The notes under the pieces were generated by a model. It worked only from the letters and a program-made list of their open reading frames with translations, made no database searches and was not told the DNA's origin. The translations under genes were made by a program, and so were the position numbers. A DNA stretch of 50,169 bases from Chloroflexota bacterium (GTDB taxonomy: Bacteria; Chloroflexota; Dehalococcoidia; JACVQG01), in the NCBI GenBank assembly GCA_016210545.1, contig JACQTY010000166.1:1-50169 (forward strand), given 5' to 3'. Position 1 is the first letter of the stretch. The number at the start of each line of letters is the position of its first letter. Below are positions 4,774-42,718 of this stretch, piece by piece.

Positions 4774-4793
4774 ACCAGGGTAACTGAAGGTTG

Positions 4794-4860
4794 TCATGAC
4801 CGGGGCCGTCCCCGATTGAACCGGGGGCGGCCCCGATCATGACGTGTTAACTCTTCTTTT
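4794..4860 (+). terminator. Hairpin downstream of glnA, probable intrinsic terminator
   Basis: GTCATGACCGGGGCCGTCCCCG-loop-CGGGGGCGGCCCCGATCATGAC followed by a T-rich tract. Confidence 0.65.
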
Positions 4861-7025: not shown

Positions 7026-7045
7026 TAATCCGAAGGAGCTGCCCG

Positions 7046-7624
7046 ATGTATTGTCCGAAATGCGGCGCATTAACTCAGGATGACTCACAATTCTGCCCTT
7101 CGTGCGGGGCCCCGGTTGCCCCACCCGCATGTCCCAATTGCGGACGTCCAATTAAGGCCGACGCGCGGTTTTGCGCCGGCTGCGGACAACAATTGACCGG
7201 CGGCCAGACGGCGCCGGGTCCGCGCCCCCCTTCTCCAGCGCCCGCAGGAATAGCCTCTGACCTGAAAGGGCTTGAGCCTGGAGAGGTTGTCCTGATGGAT
7301 ACCGGGTTTTTCCCGATAACCTATGTAAAGAACTTTGCCAGTTCAACCAACGGCAAGCTGTATCTCACCAACCGCCGGCTTGTTTTTAAGGCAGGTAAAC
7401 TCCAGGGGGTGGGCGGAGTGGCGGCGGGCGGCATCTTCGTCCCCAACCTGAAGGACGTCAACAAGTCGAAAGAGTTCTTTGCCATCGCCCTGTCTGACAT
7501 AACCGCGGTAGATACGGTATGGGCTGGTATAACCGTGAATGCGGCGGGACAGAAATATAAATTCGGCGGCATGCGCAAGACTAACGAATGGCAGGAAGCC
7601 ATCAGCAGGGCCATGAATAGTTAG
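7046..7624 (+). CDS. Double zinc-ribbon protein with C-terminal PH/GRAM-like domain
   Basis: Four CxxC motifs, then GKLYLTNRRLVF and IALSDITAV typical of PH/GRAM folds; AAGGAG RBS before ATG 7046. Confidence 0.8.
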   Translation: MYCPKCGALTQDDSQFCPSCGAPVAPPACPNCGRPIKADARFCAGCGQQLTGGQTAPGPRPPSPAPAGIASDLKGLEPGEVVLMDTGFFPITYVKNFASSTNGKLYLTNRRLVFKAGKLQGVGGVAAGGIFVPNLKDVNKSKEFFAIALSDITAVDTVWAGITVNAAGQKYKFGGMRKTNEWQEAISRAMNS

Positions 7625-7677
7625 TATTTCCAGAAACCCTTTGATATAATATGTAAAGTTGTTTGGAGAGGATGCGC

Positions 7678-10074: not shown

Positions 10075-10075
10075 T

Positions 10076-11269
10076 ATGGAAAATTCGCGCCCCCCCGGGG
10101 TCACCGCGGCGGCCATCTCCGATGGCGAGCTATCCGCGCTGTTGAGCTTGTCCGGAATAACGCCGGAGAAGGCGTCGCCGCTGGCGCAAATCAGCAGCCA
10201 GCCCGCAGCGCCCGATGCGGTCCGCAAGTTGCAACAATCCGGCCTCATGGACGCCGGCAGCCGGCCTACCCCGGGATGTCAGGAGTGTCTCAGGATCCTG
10301 GCCAGCCCGGGCGTTGAGATGGACCTGGTCTGGGGTAATGCGGAAGGCGTTAGCCTCAGCAAGGTATATGCCGCCGGTGAGAACAGCAAATTGGTCTCTT
10401 TCACCAGGATTGACGGCAGCAATCACCTGTCTTATTTCCTGTCTCCGCAGGACATCACCGACCTGATTGTGGAGAAGACGGCGGGGCCTTCAATTCGGGA
10501 AGCTGTAGACCTTTCGATAGAGACCAGTGTAGAGGCCATGCCGGTCTTCTTTGCCTTGCTTGACTCATGCCGGGAGTCACAGCTCAGAACGGCCCTGGAG
10601 CGGAGGCGGGAAGCCGAAGTGACGGTAACCGCCGATGACGCAAATCGCATTACGCAAACGGCCAAAGTGGAGCTCGACATGAGCTGGTACGCTCCGGTTG
10701 CCTACGTGGCGGTACCAATGGACACGCCGATAACTGGGAACAGCATCGCTGAAGGTATAAAAACCCTGAACCGGGAAGGAATTATTGGCGCAAACGGCGT
10801 CTTGAATGCGCGCCTGGTTTCCTTTGCCCGGGCCGCTTTCCCATTGGTTTCATTTGTGGGCGTAAGGGTAGTAAGAAGAAGCTCCGCCTCCCTTGAGAAG
10901 ACACAGTTGGCTCTCTTCCGGGGCTTCTCGACACTGCTGCTGGTACAGATGTCTTCGGACGGCGCTGCGAAACAGGTCCTCATAAACTCGATATCTACTT
11001 CGCAATTGCCGGAGCTGCTTTTTAGCCTGGCTACACGCCCGTTTGAAGTTGAGGCTCTGAAGCCCGCTCCACAGACGCAAGCGGCAACATCGGGGCCCGG
11101 CCTTGTGTGCGCCAAGTGTGGCGCCCCGAGCCCGGGTGGCGCAGGGTTCTGCGTAAAGTGCGGAGCGCCGCTTCCGCTGCCATCAACTGCCAATTTCTGC
11201 CGCAAGTGCGGCCGTCCGGTGACAACCGGGGCGAAGTTCTGCAATAAATGCGGCGCCCGGTTAGATTAG
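10076..11269 (+). CDS. Hypothetical protein with C-terminal double zinc ribbon; N-terminal region EspG-like
   Basis: Starts 1 nt after the previous stop; four C-terminal CxxCG motifs; N-terminal LQQSGLMD..LRILASP pattern. Confidence 0.75.
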   Translation: MENSRPPGVTAAAISDGELSALLSLSGITPEKASPLAQISSQPAAPDAVRKLQQSGLMDAGSRPTPGCQECLRILASPGVEMDLVWGNAEGVSLSKVYAAGENSKLVSFTRIDGSNHLSYFLSPQDITDLIVEKTAGPSIREAVDLSIETSVEAMPVFFALLDSCRESQLRTALERRREAEVTVTADDANRITQTAKVELDMSWYAPVAYVAVPMDTPITGNSIAEGIKTLNREGIIGANGVLNARLVSFARAAFPLVSFVGVRVVRRSSASLEKTQLALFRGFSTLLLVQMSSDGAAKQVLINSISTSQLPELLFSLATRPFEVEALKPAPQTQAATSGPGLVCAKCGAPSPGGAGFCVKCGAPLPLPSTANFCRKCGRPVTTGAKFCNKCGARLD

Positions 11270-11883
11270 ACTTCGCGGAGGCTCTGGTAAGTGGCGTGTG
11301 ATTTCCGGACCACCGGCACGAATTCCCAACCGTTGTCTTCAACCGCTTGCTTGATCGGGTCACGGACATAGCCGACATCAAACTTGTATTCGTAAATCTT
11401 GCCCGGCTTCAGATTCTCCTTCAGGCCGTACTGCACCCCCCAGGACTTCTGGAAAAGGATCCTGCCCCGGAAGAACTGACGCTGATAGGCTAGCGTCGGC
11501 GTCGGATGCCCGTCAGTGCCGGCCAACCATTGCACCGTGACTAGCTCCTCACAATAGCGGGCGGCCCGGCGTGACTCATCCAGAACGATGAAAGCGCGGT
11601 AGATCTTGCTCAGGCGTTCCCTGGCGAATACGGCAAACCACTTTGCGTCGACAATCTTCCATTCCACCAGCAGATCCGTCTCGCTCGTTGGCTTTATTTC
11701 ATACGGCAGCTCGGGCGAGTTCAGGCCAAGCAGCCGCTGTTTCAGGCTATCCTTACCTGTAAAGATGTCGGTCTTGCTCTTCCTCCCCCCAAGGTACTCT
11801 CCAATACCCAGAGCAAGGAACATGGCCCACACGCCAATTACGGCGCCGAGCACTCCAGCAGCCGCGCCAATCAGAACGAGCAT
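11266..11883 (-). CDS. Hypothetical membrane-anchored protein
   Basis: GGGGAGG RBS, N-terminal TM helix, C-terminal PIKQAVEDNGWEF; converges on the zinc-ribbon cluster. Confidence 0.75.
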   Translation of the reverse strand: MLVLIGAAAGVLGAVIGVWAMFLALGIGEYLGGRKSKTDIFTGKDSLKQRLLGLNSPELPYEIKPTSETDLLVEWKIVDAKWFAVFARERLSKIYRAFIVLDESRRAARYCEELVTVQWLAGTDGHPTPTLAYQRQFFRGRILFQKSWGVQYGLKENLKPGKIYEYKFDVGYVRDPIKQAVEDNGWEFVPVVRKSHATYQSLREV

Positions 11884-12179
11884 TACGGCCTCCCCACCAT
11901 AGGCATGGACTTGTACCACTTTCGTGCGCCAGCAGCGCCGCAAATCCGGCCGGGTGCACAGTATCGAGTGGCGCAACCCACAAAAGCCTCCTCACATTCT
12001 GTCAAAGACCATCATCGGGATTTACGTAAAGGGGGGTCCATGGGGTTCCCTTCGCAGCACATCTCCACGAGCGAGCAACGCCGGCGGGACTGACAAGTCA
12101 CAAACTTTCGTCCCCTACGCCGATCAAGCGCCCCCCGATACATCGCGGCGAGTTCCCCAGGAGCTTGGTTCTCAATGTT

Positions 12180-31358: not shown

Positions 31359-31994
31359 TTGAAAACCAAACTATTCGTGATAGCTCTAGCCGTCATGCTG
31401 TTGGCAGCAGGGACGGGCGGCGACCTGGCTTCCGCGACGGGCAACGGCGCCCCCAGCGGCGAGCACTATAACCTGAACATCATCGGCGTGCCCAAAGCAA
31501 AGACCGCAGACATGACCAACGACGACGGTCACAGGATCTTTGTGGCCCTGGGGAACAAGACAGGCGATCCGGTCAACACCAAGATAGCTCTGTCCCAGAG
31601 CACAGATGGCACATTCCGTGTGCTGGATGCTAACGGGACCGACGGCAAGGCGGCCTTCCAACTGCCAGCGCCAGGCTCCTACACTATCTGGGCGCGGCCC
31701 CTCGGCCAGCCTGGCGGCCAGGCCAAGGTGACCACCTGCGCCATAGACCCTGTTACCGGCGAGGAAGTATGCTCCACCTCGTTTGAGGTATTTGTCCGCG
31801 GCGCCGGCCAGTCCAAATTCACCGACGTCACCACGAACCTGACCTTCATCGTGTTGGACCCGTCCCTGACCGAGCTAATCACGGCTTGCGACGGCGCCAC
31901 CGTCAGCCTCTTCAGCCCCTGCCTGCAAGGCTATTTCTGGAACTACGCCAACAACGGCCTGAAGCTGCTGCAACTGCGGTTCTACCCCAACTAG
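31359..31994 (+). CDS. Secreted hypothetical beta-rich protein
   Basis: Signal peptide; GNGAPSGEHYNLNIIG; four Cys; ends LQLRFYPN. Confidence 0.75.
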   Translation: MKTKLFVIALAVMLLAAGTGGDLASATGNGAPSGEHYNLNIIGVPKAKTADMTNDDGHRIFVALGNKTGDPVNTKIALSQSTDGTFRVLDANGTDGKAAFQLPAPGSYTIWARPLGQPGGQAKVTTCAIDPVTGEEVCSTSFEVFVRGAGQSKFTDVTTNLTFIVLDPSLTELITACDGATVSLFSPCLQGYFWNYANNGLKLLQLRFYPN

Positions 31995-32195
31995 GGTAAC
32001 CCTCACGGCAGCACTGAATGCGCCGCAGAAGCCGCGAGAGCTCGTGGCTTCTGCGTTCGCGCCGCTGAGGCCTCCCTCAACGGATGTCCTCGAACCAATC
32101 CCCCAACCCAACACGACGCAAAAGATCTCTATCGCCCCCCCCGCTCAGCCGTTGAATAATTTACCAAGACCGTCAACAATCTCTGGCCTTACCTC

Positions 32196-32255
32196 TTGAC
32201 AACCTTCCTTTTCGCCTCTATAATGTTGATGTTTTGAATCAACAATACTGTTGAT
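32196..32255 (+). promoter_or_regulatory. Consensus sigma70 promoter with overlapping inverted-repeat operator
   Basis: TTGACA-17-TATAAT (32196-32224); TGTTGAT-N7-ATCAACA-N4-TGTTGAT (32224-32255). Confidence 0.8.
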
Positions 32256-32256
32256 G

Positions 32257-32354
32257 GCGGCCTGTGACCAATGGTGGGGTAGGTAAGAGAAGGACGCCGA
32301 CCAGACTTACTGCCCGGTACTTCGAGTTTCCTTCGGGAGGCACAGTGAAGCCGC
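32257..32354 (+). ncRNA. Candidate structured cis-regulatory leader RNA
   Basis: GCGGC/GCCGC, CTGTG(A)CC/GGCACAG, GGGTAGGTAAG/CTTACTGCCC and a TCC-UUCG-GGA hairpin; together they would sequester the GGGAGG RBS and GTG start. Confidence 0.45.
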
Positions 32355-32518
32355 AGGAAGAACCAAGAAGGGACATGCCCGAATACGTGCCTGGGTTGCC
32401 TGTTGGTGAGATTGTTAGGGCGCTCAACAGTGTCCGGTTCGGGGAGGTGCGCATAGTCCGTCAGAACGCGAACATCGTACAGATCGACAAGATTGAAAAG
32501 ACGCGGTTCACTCAGTAA
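32345..32518 (+). CDS. YezD / DUF2292 family small protein
   Basis: I..AL..VRFGEV.I..QN..IVQIDK.EK.R signature; GGGAGG RBS then GTG 32345 (alternative ATG 32375). Confidence 0.8.
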   Translation: MKPQEEPRRDMPEYVPGLPVGEIVRALNSVRFGEVRIVRQNANIVQIDKIEKTRFTQ

Positions 32519-32606
32519 CCCGACAACGGGCGATGGCATGGAAAACTCAAGTATTTGGCCTGCTGACCGGACATCTGGAGGCCTGGGCCGAGAGAGGTTT
32601 GTTCAA

Positions 32607-33647
32607 ATGAAGGGTCTCATCAAGGGTAAGCAGGCTTTATCGTTGAGCGCAATACTCGGAATACTGATGGTCATCAGCGCTTGCGCCCCCAGGGAGCCGG
32701 TATCTTCAACACCAGCACCGTCCCAGCCGGCCTCTTCATCTCTGCCGGCGCGGCCATCGGGAACAGGCCCCACGCTAACGGGTAAGATCACTGTGTCCGG
32801 CGCCTGGGCGCTCTATCCTATGATGGTGAAATGGGCTGAGGAGTTCCAGAGGACAAACCCCGGCGTGAAGATCGATGTGTCGGCGGGGGGAGCGGGAAAG
32901 GGAATGGCTGACGCCTTGTCCGGCCTGGCGGACATCGGCATGGTAAGCCGCGAGGTTTACCCTGTGGAGATCGACAAAGGGGCGTTCTACGTGCCATCGG
33001 TGATAGATGCCGTGGTCGCGGTTGCCAGCGCCGGGAATCCGTTCAAAGACGATATCCTGGCCCGGGGCATAGGGAGGCAGGCTTTCACTGGTATCTGGAT
33101 AAACAGGAACGTAGCTAACTGGAGGGACGTTTTCCCGGGGGCAAAGGCTTCCGGCAAGACCGACATTCACGTTTATACCCGCAGCGACGCCGCGGGCGCG
33201 CCGGAGACCTGGGCCAAATACCTGGGTGCGAAACAGGAAGACCTCCTCGGGACCGGCGTCTATGGCGACCCGGGACTGGCCGAGGCAGTGCGGAGAGACC
33301 CGCTGGGGATTGGCTTCAACAACATCAGCTATGCCTATGACATCAGGTCCGGGAAACAGGTGGATGGATTGGTGGCCATCCCCATCGACGTCAACGAGAA
33401 TGGCAAGATCGACCCTGAGGAGGCAGTTTACGGCTCCCTGGACGACATAACCCAGGCAATAGCCAAGGGGGTCTATCCATCCCCCCCGGCCAGAGAGCTC
33501 AATCTGGTGACCCTCCGGGAGTTCAAGGGAGTCACCAGGGAGTTCATCAAGTGGATTCTAACCGAGGGGCAGAAATATGCTCCGGAGGCGGGCTATATTC
33601 CGCTGTCTCAGGCAAGGGTGGATAGCCAGCTTCCCAAACTGCGGTAA
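32607..33647 (+). CDS. pstS: PstS-like ABC substrate-binding lipoprotein
   Basis: Lipobox ISAC; ITVSGAWALYP, AGGAGKG, DIGMVSR, EFIKWIL..GQ..GYIPL. Confidence 0.85.
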   Translation: MKGLIKGKQALSLSAILGILMVISACAPREPVSSTPAPSQPASSSLPARPSGTGPTLTGKITVSGAWALYPMMVKWAEEFQRTNPGVKIDVSAGGAGKGMADALSGLADIGMVSREVYPVEIDKGAFYVPSVIDAVVAVASAGNPFKDDILARGIGRQAFTGIWINRNVANWRDVFPGAKASGKTDIHVYTRSDAAGAPETWAKYLGAKQEDLLGTGVYGDPGLAEAVRRDPLGIGFNNISYAYDIRSGKQVDGLVAIPIDVNENGKIDPEEAVYGSLDDITQAIAKGVYPSPPARELNLVTLREFKGVTREFIKWILTEGQKYAPEAGYIPLSQARVDSQLPKLR

Positions 33648-33674
33648 ACGCGATCTAACGACGTGTTGCGAGGC

Positions 33675-33702
33675 GCAGGGGCGCAGCATGCTGCGCCCCT
33701 AC
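33675..33702. repeat. REP-like palindrome between pstS and pstC
   Basis: GCAGGGGCGCAGCATGCTGCGCCCCTAC. Confidence 0.75.
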
Positions 33703-33729
33703 TGCGGGCAAACCTCGTTCTCCGGGTGA

Positions 33730-34602
33730 GTGTTTGATTTGATATCTAAGAGAAGACTGGCAGACCTCGTATCGACGAGGCTGATGCTGGCGGCGACGGC
33801 CCTTGTCGGCGTCACCGTCCTGTTCATAGCCGTCATGCTTTTCTTGAAAGCCAGGCCTATTCTGGCAACAAACTCGTTGGGCGACCTGTTCCTTTCGTCT
33901 TCGTGGCGTCCCTCCAGGGGCGAGTTTGGCCTGTTCCCCTTTATCATGGGCACCCTGTGGGTGACGGTCCTGGCGGGCATTATTGCTCTGCCGGTCAGCA
34001 TTTTGGGCGCCCTTTACATTACGGAATATGCTCCGCCCAGGGTGCGGGCTGTAGCCAAGCCCGTCGTTGACGTTCTGGCCGGAATCCCGCCGGTAGTGTA
34101 TGGCGTCTGGGGCCTGGTGGCGTTGTCCATCGGCGGCATCGCGATCGGGTTCAACGTGCTGTCCGGCAGCATAGTGTTGGCGATAATGGTAATACCGGTG
34201 ATACTGGGTGTGTCGGAGGAGGTATTCCGGATGGTGCCCCAGGATGTCAAGGAGGCATCTCTGGCAGTGGGGGCCACCAAATGGGAGACAGCCAGGAATG
34301 TGGTCATACGGAGCTCCCTGCCGGGGCTGGCGGCGGCGACGATCCTGGGTTTCTCCCGCGCCTTTGGCGAGACTATGGCGGTGCTCATGGTGGTGGGGAA
34401 CATCGCCAGGGTACCCTCATCGCCGTTGGACCCGGCATACCCCCTGACAGCGCTGATCGCCAACAACTACGGAGAGATGATGTCCATTCCCCTCTACGAC
34501 TCGGCCATCCTGCTGGCGGCCCTGGTGCTGCTTCTGGTAGTGCTGTTCTTCAACATCGCCGCAAGGCTGGTCCTGATAAAGGTCCAGCAGAAGTGGGCCT
34601 AG
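33730..34602 (+). CDS. pstC: PstC-like ABC permease
   Basis: LAGIPPVVYG, EASLAVGATKWET, SRAFGETMAVLMVVGN. Confidence 0.9.
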   Translation: MFDLISKRRLADLVSTRLMLAATALVGVTVLFIAVMLFLKARPILATNSLGDLFLSSSWRPSRGEFGLFPFIMGTLWVTVLAGIIALPVSILGALYITEYAPPRVRAVAKPVVDVLAGIPPVVYGVWGLVALSIGGIAIGFNVLSGSIVLAIMVIPVILGVSEEVFRMVPQDVKEASLAVGATKWETARNVVIRSSLPGLAAATILGFSRAFGETMAVLMVVGNIARVPSSPLDPAYPLTALIANNYGEMMSIPLYDSAILLAALVLLLVVLFFNIAARLVLIKVQQKWA

Positions 34603-35454
34603 ATGCAGCGGAGGAAGACAGAAGAGGCCGTCTTCAAAGGCTTGATGATAGCCTCGGTGTCCATCGTGGCGGCGGGCCTGCTTACCATCGTGGCCGTGAT
34701 AGCCTGGAAGGGTGTTCCGGCCCTCAGCATTGGCATGATAACGCAGACCCCTAAAGGCGGGTTCTACCTGGGCAAAGAGGGGGGCATCCTGAACGCAATT
34801 GTTGGCTCTCTCTACCTGGCCGGGGGGGCTACGTTGCTGGCCCTGGTCATCTCTCTGCTGGTGGCCCTCTTTCTACAGCGGGAATACATAGGTAAGAGTC
34901 GGTGGGCTGGCGTTGTCCGTTTGTCGCTGGACGTCCTGTGGGGGGTCCCGTCCATCGTCTACGGCGCCTTCGGTTTCGTCATTATGGTCTATCTGGGCAT
35001 GAGGGCGTCACTGCTGGGGGGCATTATAGTCCTGACGCTCCTGGAGATACCCATCATGGCCAGGGCCCTGGACGAGGTATTGAGAGCGGTGCCCAGGGAG
35101 TTGAAAGACGCCTCATATGCCCTCGGGACGACGCGTCTGGAGACCAGTTTGAACGTCGTGACCAGGCAGGTATTGCCCGGGATCTTGACCGCCGTGTTAC
35201 TGGCCTTCGGCCGGGGGATCGGCGACGCCGCTTCGGTGCTATTCACCGCCGGATATACGGACCGCATCCCGACCTCATTGCTAGACCCGGTGGCCTCCCT
35301 GCCGTTGGCCATATTCTTCCAGCTTGGCACGCCGTTCCCCGAGGTGCAGGCCCGGGGCTACGCCTCGGCGGTCGTCTTGCTGGTGATTGTACTTCTGATC
35401 GCGGTGGGATCCCGGGTACTGTCCCGGAGACTCACCAAATACGTGGTCAAGTAG
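34603..35454 (+). CDS. pstA: PstA-like ABC permease
   Basis: GGILNAIVGS, GVPSIVYGAFG, DASYALGTTR, GRGIGDAA. Confidence 0.9.
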   Translation: MQRRKTEEAVFKGLMIASVSIVAAGLLTIVAVIAWKGVPALSIGMITQTPKGGFYLGKEGGILNAIVGSLYLAGGATLLALVISLLVALFLQREYIGKSRWAGVVRLSLDVLWGVPSIVYGAFGFVIMVYLGMRASLLGGIIVLTLLEIPIMARALDEVLRAVPRELKDASYALGTTRLETSLNVVTRQVLPGILTAVLLAFGRGIGDAASVLFTAGYTDRIPTSLLDPVASLPLAIFFQLGTPFPEVQARGYASAVVLLVIVLLIAVGSRVLSRRLTKYVVK

Positions 35455-35471
35455 AAACGAGACAGCCGTTA

Positions 35472-36467
35472 ATGAACGACATCTGCCTCCGCATCCACGG
35501 TCTTAACGTCAGCTATGACGGGCACACGGCCCTCAAGAATATATATCTTGACATCCCGCACCGGCAGATCACCGCCATCATCGGGCCATCGGGCTGCGGC
35601 AAAACGACCCTGCTCCGGTCCATTAACCGGCTGATAGACCTCACCGACGGGGCCAAGATCCGCGGCGAGATATGGCTGGACGGACACAACGTGATGAGCG
35701 ACAGGGAGGACGTCACCTCGATAAGGAAAAGGATAGGGCTGATCTCCCAGAAGCCATCCCCGTTGCCCATGTCCATATACGACAACGTGGCCTACGGCCC
35801 TCGCATCCACGGGATGCGGGATAGGAAAGAGCTGGACAAGACGGTGCGTAGCTGCCTGGAGACTGCCGGGCTGTGGACCGAGGTGAAGGACAGGCTCCAG
35901 TCACCGGCAACCAGGCTATCGGTGGGGCAACAGCAACGTCTGTGTCTGGCCCGGAGCCTGGCCGTCAGGCCTGAGGTCCTCTTGTGCGACGAGCCTACAT
36001 CGGCGCTCGACCCGGTGTCGTCGCAGAACATCGAGAATAGGCTCATCGAACTCAAAAAGGACTACACCATCGTGATAGTCACCCATAACATCCACCAGGC
36101 GATGAGGCTCGCCGATTACGTCGTCCATCTCTATCTGGGCGAACTGGTGGAACACGGCCCGGCCAGCGAGGTGTTCCAGAGGCCCAAGCAGGACCGCACC
36201 CGGGCCTATATCAACGGCACTGTCCTTACGAAGCCACGGACCGACGTTGAGATCAACCTGAAGGGGAAGGTGTGCCCCTTGAATTTCGTCTTCGCCAAAG
36301 CGGCGCTGGAGAACCTGGAGATCGGGCAGGTGCTCAAGGTAATAGTCGACTACCCGACGGCGATAACCGAGGTGCCCCGGGCCATGGAGTACGATGGCCA
36401 TAAGGTGCTGGGGGTGAAGCAGCTTAACGAGACCGATTGGGAGGTAATCATACAGAAACGAGAATAG
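35472..36467 (+). CDS. pstB: PstB-like ABC ATPase fused to a C-terminal TusA/SirA sulfur-carrier domain
   Basis: GPSGCGKTT, LSVGQQQRLCLAR, DEPTSALDP, VTHN; continues in frame into INLKGKVCPLNFVFAKAALE..GQVLKVIVD. Confidence 0.9.
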   Translation: MNDICLRIHGLNVSYDGHTALKNIYLDIPHRQITAIIGPSGCGKTTLLRSINRLIDLTDGAKIRGEIWLDGHNVMSDREDVTSIRKRIGLISQKPSPLPMSIYDNVAYGPRIHGMRDRKELDKTVRSCLETAGLWTEVKDRLQSPATRLSVGQQQRLCLARSLAVRPEVLLCDEPTSALDPVSSQNIENRLIELKKDYTIVIVTHNIHQAMRLADYVVHLYLGELVEHGPASEVFQRPKQDRTRAYINGTVLTKPRTDVEINLKGKVCPLNFVFAKAALENLEIGQVLKVIVDYPTAITEVPRAMEYDGHKVLGVKQLNETDWEVIIQKRE

Positions 36468-36559
36468 GGACCACCGTAGCCTCTCCCCCATGGGAGAGGG
36501 AATCCCACCCGCCTCTTGTGCGGCGCCAACATGAAGATGGAAAGGAAGGTCAAGGTCAA

Positions 36560-37285
36560 TTGAGAGACAATGTTAGCCTGGAAGAACTGAAGGAGTTGGT
36601 CAACGGCCTGAACTTCGCCGAGAAGGTCGACCGCTCCCTGAGACTCATCGATGAGGCATACAAGGAGTACGGCGACCGCCTGGTGGTCGCCAACAGCCTG
36701 GGCAAGGACTCCGTGGCAGTATGGCACCTGGCCAAGCGGGTGTCGCCGGAGATCCGCGGCTTCATAGTCACCACCCGCTACAAGCCAAAGGAGACCGTGG
36801 AGTTCATGAACCGGGAGGTCACCCGCTATCCGGAGTTGAAGGTGTTCCGTAACGACGCGCCGATACCGGAAGAGCTTTACCGCACCGACCCCGACCGCTG
36901 CTGCGACGTGCTCAAGGTGCAGCCGGTGCAGTGGGCCATAGAGCAGATGAACGTCGGCTGCTGGGTAACCGGGCTGCGCTGCACCGAGGGCAGGACCCGC
37001 ACCGACTACCGCGAGATCGAGGAGCGGGACGAGGGGCTCATCAAGCTGAACCCCATCCTGCTGTGGCATGAGCGCGAGGTGTGGCAGTACCTGGCCATCA
37101 ACCAGGTGCCGGTCAACCCACTGTACGCCAAAGGGTATCGCTCGCTAGGCTGTCTGCCGTGCACCCGCATCACCAACGACGCCAATGAGCGCGCCGGTCG
37201 CTGGGTGGGTACCAGCAAGTGCGGCGGCGAGTGCGGCATTCATACCCGTCCCTTGAAGGTCGGCGCTTCAAGTCAAAGGAGCTAG
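36560..37285 (+). CDS. cysH: APS/PAPS reductase, [4Fe-4S] (APS-reductase) type
   Basis: SLGKDS, RCCDVLK, WVTGLR, GYRSLGCLPCT, ERAGRW, GECGIH. Confidence 0.92.
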   Translation: MRDNVSLEELKELVNGLNFAEKVDRSLRLIDEAYKEYGDRLVVANSLGKDSVAVWHLAKRVSPEIRGFIVTTRYKPKETVEFMNREVTRYPELKVFRNDAPIPEELYRTDPDRCCDVLKVQPVQWAIEQMNVGCWVTGLRCTEGRTRTDYREIEERDEGLIKLNPILLWHEREVWQYLAINQVPVNPLYAKGYRSLGCLPCTRITNDANERAGRWVGTSKCGGECGIHTRPLKVGASSQRS

Positions 37286-37287
37286 CT

Positions 37288-37623
37288 TTGCAGTTGGACA
37301 AGGTTCGCGAATGGCTGCCTTTTTTCCGGGGGCACGGCATCTGCTCCAAATGTCACCTTCGTGTGGAGTTCACCGGCGTCCCTCCGGGGAATCCCGCCGA
37401 AGAACTCATAGCAAAGGTAGCTGGCAGCCGCAGGTCGGTGTCGTTGCACTGGCTGGAGGAGCGGCTGGCCGATGCCCTCTACTATGCCGAACTGGACAAG
37501 GGCGGCGGGGTGAACGACATCGGAGTGTGGGGCTGCGCTGTGTTCTGCAAGGAGTCGGCCCGAATGATAGGGGAGATGCGACCGGAGTTTGCCGTGGTGC
37601 GAGACGCAAACTCCGGTCACTAG
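37288..37623 (+). CDS. Hypothetical protein, last gene of the operon
   Basis: AAGGAG RBS 6 nt before TTG, immediately after cysH; contains CSKC. Confidence 0.6.
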   Translation: MQLDKVREWLPFFRGHGICSKCHLRVEFTGVPPGNPAEELIAKVAGSRRSVSLHWLEERLADALYYAELDKGGGVNDIGVWGCAVFCKESARMIGEMRPEFAVVRDANSGH

Positions 37624-37662
37624 GGGCGCGGCGCGCCGCGCCCGCGTCGCCCGGGGGCAAAA

Positions 37663-37701
37663 CGAAAGCCCACCTTCTTGAGAAGGTGGGCTTTCTCATT
37701 T
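37663..37701 (+). terminator. Intrinsic terminator of the yezD-pst-cysH operon
   Basis: GAAAGCCCACCTTCT-TG-AGAAGGTGGGCTTTC followed by TCATTT. Confidence 0.8.
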
Positions 37702-37811
37702 CCGGTCACCCCGACTATGTCGCTCGGGGGTTGGCGGGTTCCGCTTCGCTTCACCTTGCCCTCTACAACTGATTATCAACGGAACGCCCGTTGGCGCCCC
37801 CTCTCTCTATG

Positions 37812-37924
37812 ACTCTCTCCCTCGCTCCGCGCGACGGAGTGTTCGATGGGGGCGAGAGAAAACCCTGCGCCCCGGCATCTCCGCGCCCTCTGCGGTGATA
37901 GCCTGTGGCTGATGGACACGGGCC
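37812..37924 (+). repeat. Imperfect direct repeat, copy 1 (copy 2 at 39375-39475), flanking the S8 peptidase gene
   Basis: Shared blocks ACTCTCTCCCTC, CGAGAGAAAA, CCCCGGCATCTC, AGCCTG.GGCT.ATGGACACGGGCC. Confidence 0.75.
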
Positions 37925-37939
37925 AACCTCGGCCCGCCT

Positions 37940-39112
37940 CTACTTGACAGCTTCGAACGCGTTCACCCTCCCCAGATTCGAGGTGAAACCCACGACGGGA
38001 TTGGTAGAAGCCAACACGTGACTCTTCACCTGGACGTTAGTCCAGTCCGGATGCATGGCAAACAAAAGGGCGATTGTCCCCGCCACATGCGGCGCCGCCA
38101 TGGAAGTGCCGGTAAGATAGCCGTAGTTTCTCAGTCCCATGAGGTTCTCATGGTTGGGAAAGGTTGAAAAGATGTCAACGCCGGGGGCGGCCACGTCTAC
38201 CCAGTCTCCGAAGTTAGAGAAAAACGCTTTGACATCGTTGGGGTCAGTAGCGGCCACGGCAATAACATTATCGTAAGAGGCGGGATATACAGGAGAAGAA
38301 CTATTATCGTTTCCGGCCGCTGCTACCAGGACCGCCCCCTTGCTCCAAGCATAGTTTATGGCGCTTTCCAGGGTGCTGGACGTGGCGCTCCCAACGAAGC
38401 TCATGTTGATTACCTTAGCGCCTTGGTCCGCCGCGTAGACTATGCCCTGGGCAATGGAGCTGTGATTTCCCGAACCGCCGTCGTCCAGCACCTTTATATT
38501 CACTAGAGCGGAATCGAAGGCCACCCCTGCCACGCCTTTGCCGTTGTTGGTGGCCGCGGCGGCAATTCCGGCCACGTGTGTGCCATGGCCGAAGAGATCA
38601 TCAACACTGCTGGCGGTGGTGAAGTTCTTGTTGTCCACTATCTTCCCCTTGATGTCGTCATGGTCCTGGTCAATGCCACTGTCCAGAATGGCGATTTTCA
38701 CGTCCCGACTACCTGTGATCAGGTCCCATGCCTCCGGAGCCTGTATTCTGGATATTCCCCATTGCAGGCCAAAAGACACGTCGGTGGAAGTGAGCATCGC
38801 GTGAGCCACGTAGTCCAACTCGGCGAAGGCTACTTCTGGCTCCTTGCCATAATCGTCCCTTTTCCTCTTGGACTCGCCCTTGCCTACCTGTACCACTTGC
38901 ACATCGACGCCGGGGACCACCTGCACCACCCTGCCGCCGTGCTTCCCATGGACCTTTCCTTTGGTAACCTCATCCGTCCCACGGCGAAACTTCACCAGTA
39001 TTTGCCCGGAGTCAAATTCATCCGGGCCTATCTGGCTTTGGCCAGAAGCGGTTACGGGAAGGAGAAGTACAGCTACGAGTACAACTGCCGTCACCCAATA
39101 CCTTCCCCGCAC
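37940..39112 (-). CDS. Secreted S8 subtilisin-like (thermitase-like) serine peptidase
   Basis: Signal peptide and propeptide; AILDSG, HGTHVAG, AAAGN, GTSMAAPHVAG. Confidence 0.95.
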   Translation of the reverse strand: MRGRYWVTAVVLVAVLLLPVTASGQSQIGPDEFDSGQILVKFRRGTDEVTKGKVHGKHGGRVVQVVPGVDVQVVQVGKGESKRKRDDYGKEPEVAFAELDYVAHAMLTSTDVSFGLQWGISRIQAPEAWDLITGSRDVKIAILDSGIDQDHDDIKGKIVDNKNFTTASSVDDLFGHGTHVAGIAAAATNNGKGVAGVAFDSALVNIKVLDDGGSGNHSSIAQGIVYAADQGAKVINMSFVGSATSSTLESAINYAWSKGAVLVAAAGNDNSSSPVYPASYDNVIAVAATDPNDVKAFFSNFGDWVDVAAPGVDIFSTFPNHENLMGLRNYGYLTGTSMAAPHVAGTIALLFAMHPDWTNVQVKSHVLASTNPVVGFTSNLGRVNAFEAVK

Positions 39113-39236
39113 GGAAGTCTCCTTTTACAACATCTGTTCGCTAACTTTCAGCCCAGGTTGGCGGACAATAAATGCTTTCTCGGCGACCGGCCAGCGCCTC
39201 ATTTATTAATACTAATAGTTAGCATTACCTATTAAG

Positions 39237-39265
39237 ATTGTACAGCATCTCTCTTTGGGAGTCAA
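39237..39265 (-). promoter_or_regulatory. Promoter of the S8 peptidase
   Basis: TTGACT-17-TACAAT on the minus strand. Confidence 0.65.
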
Positions 39266-39374
39266 TAGTAGCACATAGTCACCCCGATACGGACAGGTCA
39301 CTACATCGAGGGGTTTGGGCTCCCCGTTTCGATTGGAGATCCGTTCGCGGGAGGGTCTTCGCAGGGCATGCCTA

Positions 39375-39475
39375 ACTCTCTCCCTCATAAGGACGAGAGA
39401 AAATCCTCCCCTCCCCGGCATCTCTGCGCTGTCCGCGGCCTCCGCGTGAGAGCCTGCGGCTTATGGACACGGGCC
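39375..39475 (+). repeat. Imperfect direct repeat, copy 2; includes the -35 of the downstream gene
   Basis: Matches 37812-37924; TGGACA-18-TAAACT then GTG 39501. Confidence 0.75.
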
Positions 39476-39500
39476 GCCCCCACCAACTAAACTATAAGCT

Positions 39501-40325
39501 GTGGCCAGAAGAACCCGCCCTCGCTTGACCCCCATCGGGACCTCCGAAGCCTGCCTTGACGGCCGGGTCGTTACTTACTGCATCAAGCGCAGCCCCCGGG
39601 CCTGTCGAGTCCGGCTGGAGGTCAGGTCGGACACGGGCCTGACAGTGGTGATCCCCCGGGCTTATCAAATACGTGACCTCCCTGACGTGCTTCAGCAGAA
39701 GAAACGCTGGATCCTGGGCAAGCTGGCGGAGAGCGCCAGGGCCAGGACTGCCGCCAGCGGGGGACTCCGACACGGCGATGCCGTTCCATACCTGGGCCGG
39801 GAGCTGCAGGTGGTCCAACTGCCCCGTTCCGAGGGTCTTCGACACGAGGACCCGGCCTGGCTCGGCGTCCGCCTGGAAGGTGACAGGCTCGCCGTCAGCT
39901 GTCCCGATTTGTCGGGACCCGGAGATGCGGCGCTCGGCTCTATGGTGGAGAGATGGTACCGGGCGCAAGCTCTGAACATAGTTAGCCGGAAGGTGGAGGA
40001 GGCGAGCCGGGTGGTTGGGGTGGACATCTGCCGCATCACCGTCCGGGAGCAGCGGACCCGGTGGGGTAGCTGCTCTCGGAAGGGAAACCTGAGTTTCAAT
40101 TGGAAGCTGCTTATGGCGCCGGAGCCGGTGATGGACTACGTCGTCATCCACGAGCTTTGCCATCTGAAGGAGATGAACCACAGCAAGCGGTTCTGGCAGG
40201 TGGTGGCCCGCTACTGTCCCCGGTGGCGGGAGCACAAGAAGTGGCTGCGCGACCATGGGGTGGAACTGGCAGCCGCCGGTGAAACCCTAAATCCGAAGCT
40301 CCAAACCTCAAACCAACCTCAATAG
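39501..40325 (+). CDS. YgjP/DUF45 (SprT-like) zinc metallopeptidase-family protein
   Basis: RTRWGSCS, DYVVIHELCHL..NHS..FW. Confidence 0.9.
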   Translation: MARRTRPRLTPIGTSEACLDGRVVTYCIKRSPRACRVRLEVRSDTGLTVVIPRAYQIRDLPDVLQQKKRWILGKLAESARARTAASGGLRHGDAVPYLGRELQVVQLPRSEGLRHEDPAWLGVRLEGDRLAVSCPDLSGPGDAALGSMVERWYRAQALNIVSRKVEEASRVVGVDICRITVREQRTRWGSCSRKGNLSFNWKLLMAPEPVMDYVVIHELCHLKEMNHSKRFWQVVARYCPRWREHKKWLRDHGVELAAAGETLNPKLQTSNQPQ

Positions 40326-40370
40326 CGGCGCCCGGATTAGTTTGAAATTTGGTGCTTGGTGTTTGGAGCT

Positions 40371-41210
40371 TCACTTCTCTATTGGCGCCCCTACCAGATT
40401 GCCCCACTCGTTCCAGGAGCCGTCGTATACTCGCACCTCACTGTTGCCCAGTACGTACTTGAGAACGAACCAGGAGTGAGAGGCGCGCACCCCCAGACGG
40501 CAGTAGGTAATGACTTCTTTGTCTCTGGTGATGCCCAGCGACCGGTATAGTTGCTCCAGATCCTCCAGAGACTTGAACGACCCATCCTCCTTGAGGGCTT
40601 CTTCCCAGGGACGGTGGGCAGCGCCGGGGATGTGGCCCAGCCGCCGTATGCCGGTCTGCGGATGCTCGGGGTGGTCCCGGCCCTCGAACTCCTCTCGCGT
40701 GCGGACGTCGAGTAGCGCAACCGATGGCTTGCCGATAACGCGCAGCACCTCCTCGCGAGTAGCCCGCACGGAAGGGTCAGTCCCTTGGACCTGATAGCGG
40801 GTGGGCGTGACCGAGGTCCTTTTCCGGGTCAGTGGCCGCCCCTCCTTCTCCCATTTTTTCTTGCCGCCGTTGAGCAGTCGCACGTCCTTGTGCCCGAACA
40901 GCTTCATGACGAAGAAGGCCCACGTGGCGTGGCGGTTAAGGCCATCGCCATAGAGTACGACGGCGCTGTCTTCAGCGATGCCCGACCTGGACATAAGGGC
41001 CGAGAACTGCTCCTGGGACGGGACATCGGCCCGTACCGGGTGCTCCAGGTCCTGCTCCCGCTCCCACCCTACCGCCCCGGGGATATGTCCTCGCAGATAC
41101 TCGGAGACGTTTCCGTTCACCTCCACCACGCGAAGGCCGGGGTCATCGAGATGGCGGGCCAGCCATTCCGTCTCTACGATAGCCTCCGGATGTGCATAGC
41201 GGGTCGACAT
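40371..41210 (-). CDS. Tandem-domain rhodanese sulfurtransferase (SseA/TST-like)
   Basis: GHIPGA twice, LLNGG..KW, active-site YCRLGVRA, YDGSWNEWG. Confidence 0.93.
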   Translation of the reverse strand: MSTRYAHPEAIVETEWLARHLDDPGLRVVEVNGNVSEYLRGHIPGAVGWEREQDLEHPVRADVPSQEQFSALMSRSGIAEDSAVVLYGDGLNRHATWAFFVMKLFGHKDVRLLNGGKKKWEKEGRPLTRKRTSVTPTRYQVQGTDPSVRATREEVLRVIGKPSVALLDVRTREEFEGRDHPEHPQTGIRRLGHIPGAAHRPWEEALKEDGSFKSLEDLEQLYRSLGITRDKEVITYCRLGVRASHSWFVLKYVLGNSEVRVYDGSWNEWGNLVGAPIEK

Positions 41211-41285
41211 GGCACGCCTCCCTTTACATTGCCCTTCCGGGGACCCAGCTTCACTCCAGCCACCCGTCGATCGTTGATGGTGGCA

Positions 41286-42515
41286 TTACGGGGCGCGGTG
41301 TTGCACGGGGCCTCCCCCTTGCCTCACAAGGGGAGAATGCCGCCGGACTCTAATCAGCCACAGCGCCGCCGCCGCCGCTGTCACCAGCAGGGCGAACAGG
41401 GCCATCGTCCCGAAGCCGGAAGTGTAAGAGCCGGTGACGTCGCGGCTCAGGCCCACAAGTTGAGGCCCGACGGCGACCCCAACGTTGTTTACAGTGGACA
41501 CGATTCCGAACCCCAGTCCCAGCCGCTCCGGCCTGACCACGTCCGGCGCCAGCGAGAAAACGGCAACCGGGACAAGCGCGGCAGCAACTCCGATTGCCGC
41601 CATGAGAAGCACCATACGGTCTGTGCCGCCGGGCACCAGGACCAGGAGCAAAGCCATGCCCAGCCCACCCGCCGCGATGAACGCTTCTTTGCGTCCTACC
41701 TTGTCGATAAGGTACCCGATGGCCGGGCCCAGGACCAGGGAGCCTACCATGAGCAGGCTGACGTTGAAGCCGGCGGAGGTCAGGTCCAGGCCCTGGCCCA
41801 CCATGAAGTCCGGAGCGAAGGTGAACAGGGCTATGAACGAGGCGTTGAATAGCCCCCAGGCCAGTCCCACCAGCCAGATGGGAAGCCCGTCTCTACCTAT
41901 GTCGGAAATGCTCCACTTTGTCTTCGGCCCGCCGTGGGCGCCTGCGGCGGATGGCGGCGAGAAGAACAGGGTAAAAACGATGAGGGCCGCCACGCTGACC
42001 GCCACTGTTACCCAGATACTGGACCTCCATCCTGAACCGGCGGCCATCGCCGCCAGGGCGTTCAGGGTAAAAATCGTTCCTACCGGCATGGCGGTGTTGA
42101 ACACCCCCATGGCTGTACCCGTCTCCTTGTTCATGAAGCACTGGGCTATGGCCTGGGGGCAAATGATTACCAGGCTCAAGGCGCCGATGCCGGCGATCAA
42201 CCTGCCCGCTGCCAGTAGCGCGAACGTTGGACCGGTGGCAACCATTACCGAGCCCGCGATGGTAAGCGCCAGACATACAACGCCTACTCGTTTGATGCCC
42301 ACCCGGTCGGCGAGGATGCCGACTGGCAAAGAGATGATTACGCCAGGCAGCGCAAACAGGCTCATGAGGAGCCCGGCTTGCTGGTACGAGATGTCGAACT
42401 CCTGGATGATGAGGCTCAGCACGGGGGGAATTGACTGGAAGACCAGCGCGAAGGCCAGCATGCACAGGTACATTATCGCCAGGACGGCCCAGCGGGAGGG
42501 GTTTCTATCTTGCAT
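41286..42515 (-). CDS. MFS transporter (CynX/NimT-like)
   Basis: About 12 TM helices; GILADRVGIKR and GYLIDKVGRK motif A copies; GAGGA RBS before MQDRNP. Confidence 0.9.
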   Translation of the reverse strand: MQDRNPSRWAVLAIMYLCMLAFALVFQSIPPVLSLIIQEFDISYQQAGLLMSLFALPGVIISLPVGILADRVGIKRVGVVCLALTIAGSVMVATGPTFALLAAGRLIAGIGALSLVIICPQAIAQCFMNKETGTAMGVFNTAMPVGTIFTLNALAAMAAGSGWRSSIWVTVAVSVAALIVFTLFFSPPSAAGAHGGPKTKWSISDIGRDGLPIWLVGLAWGLFNASFIALFTFAPDFMVGQGLDLTSAGFNVSLLMVGSLVLGPAIGYLIDKVGRKEAFIAAGGLGMALLLVLVPGGTDRMVLLMAAIGVAAALVPVAVFSLAPDVVRPERLGLGFGIVSTVNNVGVAVGPQLVGLSRDVTGSYTSGFGTMALFALLVTAAAAALWLIRVRRHSPLVRQGGGPVQHRAP

Positions 42516-42718
42516 CGGTCCTCTTGCTGAAATGGTCCACGCAGTCAGCGGTCCCCGAGCATGGCGCATCCGTCACCAGGGCAAGTCCCGGTCCGTTGGG
42601 ATGACGTCTCACCCCGCATTCTACCCGAACGCCTGTATCATGGCAAGGAACGGCGACGATTTCCACTTATTGCCGGAATACCCTATGATAGGAGGAACTA
42701 AGGAAAGGAGGTGTTGCA

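Follow-up and report, generated by a model that had tools for sequence, protein, structure and literature searches.

A PstSCAB-derived ABC importer probably recruited for sulfur assimilation in a Dehalococcoidia genome

What does a phosphate-type ABC transporter import when its operon also encodes a TusA-like domain and a CysH-type reductase? The question is raised by positions 32196-37701 (+ strand) of a 50,169-nt stretch of DNA (the window, to which all coordinates refer) from Chloroflexota bacterium GCA_016210545.1, contig JACQTY010000166.1 (Dehalococcoidia; JACVQG01). From context and sequence, we consider it probable that this unit encodes an ABC importer that descended from PstSCAB and was recruited for sulfur assimilation, with sulfate and/or thiosulfate as its substrate. 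The original prediction of a Pst-derived importer of a sulfur oxyanion finds support in sat/cysDN neighbours of related loci, in the replacement of phosphate-ligating hydroxyls and in a separate pstSCAB-phoU of the host. As binding pocket and neighbours indicate sulfate or thiosulfate, the genes of this clade that are currently annotated as phosphate uptake are probably mislabelled. A literature search for a Pst-derived sulfate or thiosulfate ABC importer found none.

The operon and its transporter genes

The region is a single unit in which a promoter and an operator are followed by yezD, the gene of a substrate-binding protein (SBP), pstC, pstA, pstB::TusA, cysH, a 111-aa open reading frame and a hairpin. 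The promoter-to-terminator arrangement proposed from the bare sequence is thereby borne out, with all genes at their predicted positions and each of them, including the protein without a family, recovered by profile or ORF analysis; the proposed lack of phoU and ATP sulfurylase within the unit also held, and the host phoU sits on another contig. The sigma-70-type promoter (TTGACA-17-TATAAT, 32196..32224, +) matches the consensus at 12/12 positions and is the sole promoter-like site between 31800 and 38200 (shuffle mean 1.9). A candidate palindromic operator, TGTTGAT-N7-ATCAACA (32224..32244, +), overlaps the -10 hexamer and the transcription start; it occurs once in the window, and 0/100 shuffles contained any match. 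One loosely similar palindrome lies elsewhere in the host genome, upstream of a subtilase-like gene (contig C16), while the exact pattern of promoter and following palindrome recurs in the metagenome loci L102, L103 and L104. The terminator-like hairpin (37664..37695, +) has a 14-bp stem, and the surrounding 37620-37710 folds at -51 kcal/mol (z = -4.36); it was missed by a consensus terminator scan because its T run is not clear.

The first gene, yezD (32375..32518, +), encodes a small DUF2292 protein of 47 aa (PF10055, E 4.9e-11; 42.5 bits, above the cut-off of 22). It matches NF033785, 'sulfur starvation response protein OscA', weakly (28.4 bits, cut-off 85), and this likeness was counted for the sulfur-importer reading. 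L015 and L105 have orthologues upstream of the SBP gene, and L014 has a weaker match there.

The permeases and the ATPase stay close to their phosphate-transporting relatives. The PstC-type permease (33730..34602, +) scores 245.7 bits against TIGR02138, over the phosphate equivalog cut-off of 196, and the PstA-type permease (34603..35454, +; TIGR00974, 189 bits, cut-off 193), whose start abuts the pstC stop, and the PstB-type ATPase (35472..36467, +; ABC_tran; TIGR00972, 340.6 bits, cut-off 343.2) fall 3-4 bits short. Judged by these profiles, the permeases and the ATPase look entirely like those of a phosphate importer, contrary to a sulfur reading. Similarity to the sulfate importers of the SulT family (CysPTWA/Sbp) does not reach the family level: the two permeases score 35.6 (PstC) and 47.2 bits against CysT (cut-off 246) and 20.6 and 16.7 bits against CysW (cut-off 329), the sulfate ATPase model TIGR00968 gives 126.5 bits (cut-off 342.75), and the SBP lies outside the Sbp/CysP family.

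The ATPase carries a C-terminal TusA/YeeD-like domain (about 36249-36461, +; PF01206, E 1e-17, 64.2 bits, cut-off 28.6), matched over residues 261-330 of the 35469-36467 translation, with the conserved cysteine at Cys268 (codon 36273-36275). Among solved structures, TM0983 (3e-12) and the S. thermophila YeeE-YeeD fusion (4e-8) come closest to it, and the Cys aligns in both. By sequence comparison the fused domain most resembles the thiosulfate-uptake partner YeeD, and this was counted for a thiosulfate or sulfur importer. A YeeD study describes the protein as essential for YeeE thiosulfate uptake and as decomposing thiosulfate (PMC11073785). YeeE-YeeD (TsuA-TsuB) likewise couples a TusA-family cysteine protein physically to the cytoplasmic side of an importer; however, the partner is an ABC ATPase here and the YeeE channel there, and the motif is CPxNF, with Asn for the second Pro of CPxP. 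The Cys is retained in 8/9 fused proteins. The exception, L051, has Ala in its place and sat immediately downstream, so that Cys-based catalysis may be dispensable.

A binding pocket stripped of phosphate ligands

The SBP (32607..33647, +) is a lipoprotein of 346 aa with a signal peptide ending in ...VISAC. It matches PBP_like_2 (98.5 bits), which we take to be the Pfam family that also holds the tungstate binder TupA, and SBP_bac_11 at only 16.7 bits, and it stays far under the PstS cut-offs (TIGR02136, 95.4 bits against 206.6; TIGR00975, 68 against 205; NF008171, 20 against 339). In a Foldseek comparison of its AlphaFold model (mean pLDDT 80.7) with the PDB, the top matches were all phosphate-binding proteins (best E 2.4e-19); judged from this model, the fold is that of a periplasmic binding protein of the PstS type.

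A database search returned at least 8000 relatives of the SBP. For the tree, 160 of the clade were taken together with the window SBP, the canonical PstS of the host and a host TupA-like protein (contig C225). The window SBP and all 160 related SBPs form one clade (SH-like support 98) that leaves the canonical host PstS outside; within it, the window SBP is nested in a group of 97 rows (support 100), 49 of which have ATP-sulfurylase neighbours. On this phylogeny, the window SBP is a member of a new and large PstS-derived clade, which extends across many phyla, bacterial and archaeal.

As given in a structural report, phosphate is bound in C. perfringens PBP-1 by S11, T12, S13, S41, S59, R125, S129, G130 and T131 (PMC5381212). 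The aligned residues of the window SBP are A66, W67, A68, A96, S114, R192, A196, G197 and A198; by this alignment to a homologue, 6/9 phosphate-contacting residues are replaced, mostly by Ala. The substitutions recur almost invariantly in the clade: S11, T12, S13, S41, S129 and T131 have become A, W/F, A, A, A/C and A in 159-160/160 members, only S59, R125 and G130 are kept, and an extra residue, Lys98, is invariant. Thus altered at 6/9 ligands and supplied with an invariant Lys, the clade departs from PstSCAB, whereas the host's own PstS retains the Ser/Thr pocket residues. In the alignment, the SBP lacks the phosphate-ligating hydroxyls of phosphate binders and also their proton acceptor, which is Asp in the D-type and Ser/Thr in the S-type. 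Two features of phosphate binders nevertheless persist, the Ser-Arg pair and Arg192, and this counts against a sulfur substrate.

Sulfur genes, not phoU, as neighbours

Gene neighbourhoods were surveyed at 160 related loci, 80 from genomes and 80 from metagenomes. ATP-sulfurylase genes (sat or cysDN) stand beside the transporter in 57/160 and other sulfur-assimilation genes in 8/160, while 47/160 have Rrf2 or ribbon-helix-helix (RHH) regulators alone. The remaining 48/160 have neither sulfur genes nor such regulators, which counts against the sulfur reading, although many of these are short contigs. At genome loci, a sulfur-assimilation gene lies within 8 kb of the transporter in 17/80 (sat, cysD or cysN in 12) and an Rrf2/RHH regulator occurs in 53/80; at metagenome loci the figures are 44/80 for sulfur-assimilation genes and 43 for ATP sulfurylase, counts that overstate independence because many of these loci are near-copies of one another drawn from similar samples. 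No phoU was found at the genome loci (0/80) or the metagenome loci (0/80). The phosphate-type controls, 20 phoU-centred stretches drawn from 20 of the genomes carrying surveyed loci, gave the reverse pattern, with pstB beside phoU in 17/20, ATP sulfurylase in 0/20, any sulfur gene in 1/20 and Rrf2/RHH regulators in 0/20. The survey of phylogeny and neighbourhood proposed as a check therefore came out in favour of the prediction. Two features point the other way, namely an upstream porin belonging to the OprO/OprP family, whose name refers to phosphate selectivity (28-30/80 genome loci), and, in L013, an OmpR/PhoR-like two-component pair directly after the operon, below all cut-offs.

Of the clade-carrying genomes surveyed, 22/23 have phoU elsewhere, and in the host, contig C175 holds a canonical pstSCAB-phoU with a PhoR-like kinase, separate from the window operon. 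Sat or CysD is present in 18/23, and 12 of these 18 have neither Sbp (TIGR00971, E<=0.001) nor a strong SulP (E<1e-20). A canonical sulfate-binding protein over the cut-off occurs in only 1/23.

Compared with known systems, the window unit shares its four-component architecture and gene order with PstSCAB (PhoT family; E. coli and the systems with S-type binders, among them C. perfringens PBP-1), as well as the PstS fold, the Ser-Arg pair and the third-loop Arg, and it resembles PstSCAB in its scores for PstC (over the equivalog cut-off), PstA and PstB (just under). It differs in an SBP far under the PstS cut-offs; its clade differs in the absence of phoU from the 160 loci, in Rrf2/RHH regulators in place of PhoBR, in sulfur-assimilation neighbours and in being an extra copy alongside canonical pst-phoU. 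Its organization recalls SulT, which has the same proposed substrates and likewise places an SBP-permease-permease-ATPase unit next to cysDN, cysH or cysK, with a small DUF2292/OscA-like gene upstream; in L014 a cysteine synthase within the transporter operon resembles cysPUWAM. Yet Sbp/CysP over the cut-off is missing in 22/23 clade genomes. Recruitment of a phosphate-transporter family to sulfate uptake has a precedent in Bacillus subtilis CysP, described in a review of sulfate transporters as a phosphate-type permease of the PiT family that transports sulfate and is encoded with sulfate-assimilation genes (PMC5840216); CysP, however, is a secondary carrier and the window system an ABC transporter. 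That review leaves Pst unmentioned, with PstS, Pst and PhoT occurring 0 times.

Which anion, and how it would reach CysH

A second phosphate importer, of lower affinity or differently regulated, with sulfur genes adjacent by chance or through cross-talk between P and S nutrition, seems quite improbable to us. The scores of PstC, PstA and PstB, which reach or approach the phosphate equivalog cut-offs, the PstS fold, the retained S-type Ser-Arg pair, the Porin_O_P neighbours (28-30/80 genome loci) and the PhoR-like kinase after the operon in L013 all speak for it; but 6/9 phosphate ligands, including the proposed proton acceptor, are replaced almost invariantly, the SBP reaches 95 bits against a 206-bit PstS cut-off, phoU is at 0/160 loci yet elsewhere in 22/23 genomes, and sat/cysDN adjoins 57/160 loci against 0/20 controls.

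Import of another tetrahedral oxyanion (sulfite, selenate, molybdate, tungstate or arsenate) is unlikely. As judged by alignment, a pocket of hydrogen-bond donors only would suit any fully ionised oxyanion, TupA presumably belongs to the same Pfam family, and sulfite would require no ATP sulfurylase, matching the host genome. The neighbouring sat or cysDN, however, act on sulfate, the recurrent neighbour clusters are free of molybdenum/tungsten cofactor and arsenic genes, and the host has a separate TupA-like single-permease system (contig C225), the most distant row of the tree. Import of APS or an organosulfur anion directly usable by CysH is most improbable, and the original suggestion of APS gained no support. 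It would account for the seven related genomes that have CysH but no detectable ATP sulfurylase (two searched for Sat only), and the aromatic W/F at position 67 could, speculatively, stack on a base; but the typical PstC/PstA permeases suit a small anion, and across the clade the transporter adjoins the enzymes of intracellular APS synthesis. Free APS is not known as an environmental nutrient.

For the preferred sulfate or thiosulfate importer, the lipoprotein would capture the fully ionised anion outside the cell in a pocket without the hydroxyls and proton acceptor that phosphate binders require, and the anion would enter via the PstC/PstA-type permeases, driven by the PstB-type ATPase. Expression would probably follow sulfur status via the operator at the promoter rather than PhoU/PhoB. 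The cysteine domain on the ATPase may, like YeeD for YeeE, capture or process thiosulfate as it enters, or may sense sulfur status and throttle transport. CysH is supplied by the same operon, and its sulfite product would pass to a small sulfite reductase and a CysO/CysM-type cysteine pathway on another contig. From gene order, coupling of import to reduction is plausible.

The cysH gene (36560..37285, +) encodes a thioredoxin-type sulfonucleotide reductase of 241 aa with Fe-S cysteines (PAPS_reduct PF01507, E 1.8e-40). Its ORF opens at 36437; the chosen start is TTG 36560, preceded by GGAAAGGAAGG about 10 nt before, and orthologues measure 244-246 aa. The protein passes NF002537 (167.3 bits, cut-off 154) and stays under the substrate-specific models for APS (TIGR02055, 127.5 bits, cut-off 235.3) and PAPS (TIGR02057, 112 bits, cut-off 254.2). 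It carries CC...CxxC and ECGIH motifs, which we take to be the cluster cysteines of APS-type enzymes and the C-terminal ECG(L/I)H cysteine motif of CysH. ATP sulfurylase (Sat/CysDN) was not found in the host genome (93.8% complete) or in G001, G041, G042 and G043 (94% complete), nor was Sat (PF01747, searched without CysD) in G003 (96% complete) and G496; the host and these six relatives share the cysH type. A tblastn search of the host genome found no APS kinase. With neither enzyme found in the host, no known pathway would lead from imported sulfate to CysH, which counts against the sulfur reading. In this lineage, sulfate activation is the missing step between import and CysH.

A rather unlikely solution is that the Dehalococcoidia module turns thiosulfate, once imported, into sulfite and sulfane sulfur without sulfate activation. 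Its parts would be the importer (the Pst-derived ABC system, or a TauE-type permease in a sister lineage), the TusA cysteine domain, the divergent CysH and the small sulfite reductase. The TusA domain of the ATPase would receive the anion leaving the permease, as YeeD does, and CysH would draw the sulfo group not from APS but from a thiosulfonate bound to a protein or to cysteine. If true, this would be a CysH operating without any ATP sulfurylase.

The last gene of the operon (37288..37623, +) encodes the 111-aa protein and is translationally coupled to cysH, with AAGGAG 7 nt before its TTG 37288. It had no match in Pfam (repeated on the refined ORF) or NCBIfam, nor in Atlas and PDB-fold searches, and falls into just 4 clusters, one of them called at 111 aa; it also follows cysH in a same-genus genome (67% identity) and in L015 (38%). 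Beyond the operon, the rhodanese anticipated about 3 kb downstream is present as a tandem rhodanese (40371-41210, minus strand), 2.7 kb past the hairpin.

An extra, divergent Pst system in an operon with cysH

Window positions 32196-37701 form one plus-strand unit. It opens with a promoter, a perfect TTGACA-17-TATAAT match (32196-32224) and the sole promoter-like site in 31800-38200, directly followed by the 7+7 palindrome TGTTGAT-N7-ATCAACA (32224-32244), which matches once in the window and in none of 100 shuffles. The genes, all on the plus strand, are yezD (32375-32518; DUF2292, E 4.9e-11), a PBP_like_2 substrate-binding lipoprotein (SBP; 32607-33647), pstC (33730-34602), pstA (34603-35454), pstB fused to a TusA domain (35472-36467), cysH and a gene for an unknown protein of 111 aa (37288-37623; AAGGAG 7 nt before its start). 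The cysH reading frame opens at 36437, and its likely start is TTG 36560 because a GGAAAGGAAGG box lies upstream. A hairpin with a 14-bp stem (37664-37695, plus strand; z = -4.36) closes the unit. The fold of the 5' leader is no more stable than that of shuffles (z = 0.17), and Rfam returned no match above the gathering score over 31900-38000. A single weak match, to the Burkholderia sRNA ncS011 (37519-37698, plus strand; 30 bits vs 48, E 7.8e-5), covers part of the unknown gene at its 3' end, a GC-rich palindrome and the terminator hairpin, and is probably due to chance.

The gene content of the unit is as originally predicted, and the rhodanese placed about 3 kb downstream proved to be a tandem rhodanese 2.7 kb beyond the unit, on the minus strand. 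The downstream genes (37940-42569) encode a subtilase with a fervidolysin-like prodomain (-), a YgjP-like metallopeptidase (+), the tandem rhodanese (-) and an MFS transporter (-); the one tie seen with the operon is the sulfur chemistry of the rhodanese.

The transporter belongs to the Pst lineage by descent, yet fails the defining PstS tests. PstC exceeds its NCBIfam equivalog cut-off (245.7 bits vs 196), PstA (189 vs 193) and PstB (340.6 vs 343.2) fall marginally below theirs, and models of sulfate-type transporters score far lower than Pst models on these components. The SBP reaches 95 bits against a PstS cut-off of 206 bits. The top PDB fold matches of its structural model (mean pLDDT 80.7) are all phosphate binders, and the protein is predicted to have a PstS fold. 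The sequencing runs listed for the window are of DNA, from groundwater metagenomes, with no RNA run among them. On contig C175, the same genome (263 contigs, 93.8% complete) encodes a canonical pstS-pstC-pstA-pstB-phoU set, accompanied by a PhoR-like kinase, and PstB scores 384 bits there. A third system, with a single permease, lies on contig C225; the window's system is therefore an extra, divergent copy. The system on C225 (2414-4831) consists of a PBP_like_2 binding protein (172 bits), the permease and an ATPase, and is a candidate TupABC-type tungstate system.

The 111-aa protein has no Pfam or NCBIfam match and no Atlas hit, and falls into only four sequence clusters. Its structural model (mean pLDDT 75) found no PDB fold at E <= 0.001. 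A redox or metal role is unsupported, because the CxxC and CxxxC pairs are not kept in the orthologue at locus L015, which leaves a single invariant cysteine.

Neighbours and phylogeny of the binding protein

The SBP has at least 8000 close relatives in a large protein collection and, at E <= 1e-30, 155 representative clusters. Among species genomes, 563 relatives were retrieved by a scan, the best 80 of which served as the genome neighbourhood set; these best 80 span Chloroflexota, Bacteroidota, Aminicenantes, Omnitrophota, Planctomycetota, Spirochaetota, Thermodesulfobacteriota, Methanomicrobiales, Theionarchaea and others. A metagenome scan added 80 further loci to give 160. The SBP-pstC-pstA-pstB core is conserved across both sets. 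When neighbouring ORFs were clustered and the recurrent clusters named by Pfam, these comprised Rrf2 regulators, Porin_O_P, CysH, CysD, CysN, cysteine synthase, O-acetylhomoserine-sulfhydrylase-type enzymes, sulfite reductase, sirohaem synthase fused to TauE, and sulfatase.

Counted by tblastn within 8 kb of each locus, a sulfur-assimilation gene accompanies the SBP at 17 of the 80 genome loci (ATP sulfurylase at 12) and an Rrf2 or ribbon-helix-helix gene at 53. The metagenome loci gave 44/80 (ATP sulfurylase at 43) and 3/80, respectively, with ribbon-helix-helix genes at 24/80 under a looser score; many of them are near-copies from similar samples, so that the counts are not independent. No phoU was found at any of the 160 loci. 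As a control, 16-kb stretches around phoU were taken from 20 of the same genomes: pstB adjoins phoU in 17, any sulfur gene in one, and ATP sulfurylase or an Rrf2/ribbon-helix-helix gene in none of the 20. The neighbourhood survey called for by the original prediction is, with these counts, in its favour, as is the tree. All 160 SBPs and the window's SBP form one clade (SH-like support 98), which excludes the canonical PstS of the genome, the protein from C225 and eight distantly related representatives. The window's SBP sits in an 11-row Chloroflexota group (support 100) nested in a 97-row clade (support 100), 49 rows of which have ATP-sulfurylase neighbours. Within the Dehalococcoidia, the SBP is present in just 6 of 401 sampled genomes, and this patchy spread suggests transfer.

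At a Dehalococcoidales relative (L014:3470-8218), a cysteine-synthase-like gene stands between SBP and pstC, with a Cys/Met PLP enzyme and Rrf2 upstream, a layout that recalls E. coli cysPUWAM.

A remodelled pocket and the likely substrate

In its phosphate-bound structure, C. perfringens PBP-1 holds the anion through Ser11, Thr12, Ser13, Ser41, Ser59, Arg125, Ser129, Gly130 and Thr131, and Ser13 has been proposed to accept the proton of phosphate (PMC5381212). In a profile alignment these residues correspond to A66, W67, A68, A96, S114, R192, A196, G197 and A198 of the window's SBP, whereas the genome's own canonical PstS retains Ser/Thr at these pocket positions. The resulting signature is almost invariant across 160 clade members: S-G-A-(W in 118, F in 41)-A; G-G-A-G-K-G; S-R; and R-S-D-(A/S)-(C in 137, A in 20, S in 3)-G-A. 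Judged from the alignment, a pocket of backbone amides, one Ser, one Arg, an added Lys and no acceptor would suit an anion that is fully ionised, as sulfate and thiosulfate are. Phosphate binders described so far are of two kinds, D-type and S-type (PMC13614923); the SBP clade fits neither. It may represent a case of specificity shifting from phosphate to a non-protonated oxyanion through loss of hydroxyls and of the proton acceptor, in parallel with the PiT-to-CysP switch among secondary carriers.

Collectively, the sat/cysDN neighbours, the remodelled pocket and the separate canonical pst-phoU set support the proposal of a Pst-derived importer, and the unit quite probably encodes an importer of a sulfur oxyanion. 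The claim is a computational one. Such a system would work like CysPTWA/Sbp, yet it is no member of that family. Its nearest precedent is CysP of B. subtilis, a phosphate-type carrier of the PiT family that transports sulfate (PMC5840216), and Pst goes unmentioned in that sulfate-transporter review. No Pst-type sulfate or thiosulfate importer was found described in a literature search that left subscription journals and supplements outside its reach, so an earlier description is possible. NCBIfam release 20 holds no model for the clade, whose members are named in databases as PstS, phosphate transport or plain substrate-binding protein. Because of such names, metagenomic counts of pstS taken as a sign of phosphorus stress would wrongly include sulfur-uptake genes.

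A whole-genome survey of 23 genomes carrying the clade found phoU elsewhere in 22 and a canonical sulfate-binding protein over the cut-off in one. Sat occurs in seven and a CysD-like gene (E <= 1e-20) in 12, with ATP sulfurylase in either form in 18; SulP at E < 1e-20 occurs in five. In twelve of the 18 ATP-sulfurylase carriers, both an Sbp/CysP match and a strong SulP are missing, in a transporter survey that covered Sbp/CysP and SulP and left out PiT-type CysP, CysZ, DASS and TSUP carriers. A recognised sulfate transporter is missing from many anaerobes and some archaea that do possess sulfate-activating enzymes, a gap that the clade would fill.

As for the oxyanion, the sat/cysDN neighbours across the family favour sulfate, while in the window's lineage the YeeD-like TusA domain and the lack of ATP sulfurylase favour thiosulfate. 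That domain has its closest solved relatives in TM0983 (3e-12) and in the YeeD portion of the YeeE-YeeD fusion from S. thermophila (4e-8), and a conserved cysteine aligns among all three. Thiosulfate uptake by YeeE requires YeeD, which decomposes thiosulfate by means of its conserved cysteine (PMC11073785). The pstB::TusA fusion is rare, with six clusters in the large protein collection and four loci (L013, L015, L051, L104) among those positive for pstB (67 genome and 44 metagenome). Eight of nine fusions retain the cysteine; in the Phycisphaerae relative L051 it is replaced by Ala, and a true sat gene lies directly 3' of the fusion. The TusA domain may act on thiosulfate; alternatively, it may serve for regulation or docking in place of the missing PhoU. 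In a genome of the same genus, the match to the TusA portion of pstB is split into two pieces meeting at one base (L096, G001:C125, 1017-1183), which suggests a frameshift or assembly error.

CysH without ATP sulfurylase, and regulation

The window's cysH is the single PAPS_reduct gene of its genome, and neither Sat, CysD nor APS kinase was found in that 93.8%-complete assembly. Sat and CysD were likewise not found in genomes G001, G041, G042 and G043 (the last 94% complete). The window's type of CysH passes the general CysH model and fails both the APS-specific and the PAPS-specific models. An 80%-identical cysH occurs in two further genomes, G003 (96% complete) and G496, where a search for Sat, the one form of ATP sulfurylase looked for, found none. 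G003, a sister Dehalococcoidia genome, has no copy of the Pst-like SBP; its cysH lies in the order Rrf2, cysK, cysM, thiF, thiS, TauE, cysH, sulfite reductase, TusA, hemerythrin, DsrE (locus L187, G003:C44:38001-52000, about 4539-12085), which is the same module except that a TauE-type permease replaces the ABC importer. The converse is seen in G322 and G346, of the same class but another family, which carry the SBP clade and Sat and no PAPS_reduct. In G346, SBP and Sat share one contig, about 3.5 kb apart.

Downstream steps are encoded elsewhere in the window's genome. Contig C187 (15911-21859 and 23203-23613; L185) carries Rrf2, cysteine synthase, ThiF and a second cysteine synthase. It also encodes a small sulfite reductase into which a ferredoxin domain is inserted, a stand-alone TusA, a tandem rhodanese and, at a greater distance, a JAB protease. 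The cluster looks like a CysO/thiocarboxylate-type cysteine pathway, and its genes give sulfite and sulfane sulfur a way into cysteine. The Dehalococcoidia variant poses the question of what CysH does in genomes without ATP sulfurylase: either a sulfate-activating enzyme has escaped recognition, or this CysH uses another sulfo donor.

Promoter and palindrome are repeated exactly at the related metagenome loci L102, L103 and L104 (SBPs 71-73% identical to the window's), which are mutually close and amount to about one independent lineage. In L105, L107 and L108, which are closer relatives, there is instead an upstream Rrf2 gene. No regulator gene adjoins the window's unit; its genome encodes three Rrf2 proteins. 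The best match of the Rrf2 proteins neighbouring the clade is the cysteine regulator CymR, under its cut-off. A genome-wide search for the palindrome yielded a single loosely similar site, upstream of a subtilase-like gene, and no sign of a sulfur regulon. The leader of L103 and L104 (about 300 nt, promoter to SBP) lacks yezD and contains three hairpins (ATTCCC...GGGAAT / AATCCAGA...TCTGGATT).

At metagenome loci L111-L181 and genome loci L018, L032, L042 and L078, one or two ribbon-helix-helix genes adjoin cysDN/sat and the SBP. Their products are small (about 72 aa), have no Pfam match and probably take over the role of Rrf2 as regulator. At these loci the SBPs bear an N-terminal membrane anchor rather than a lipobox.
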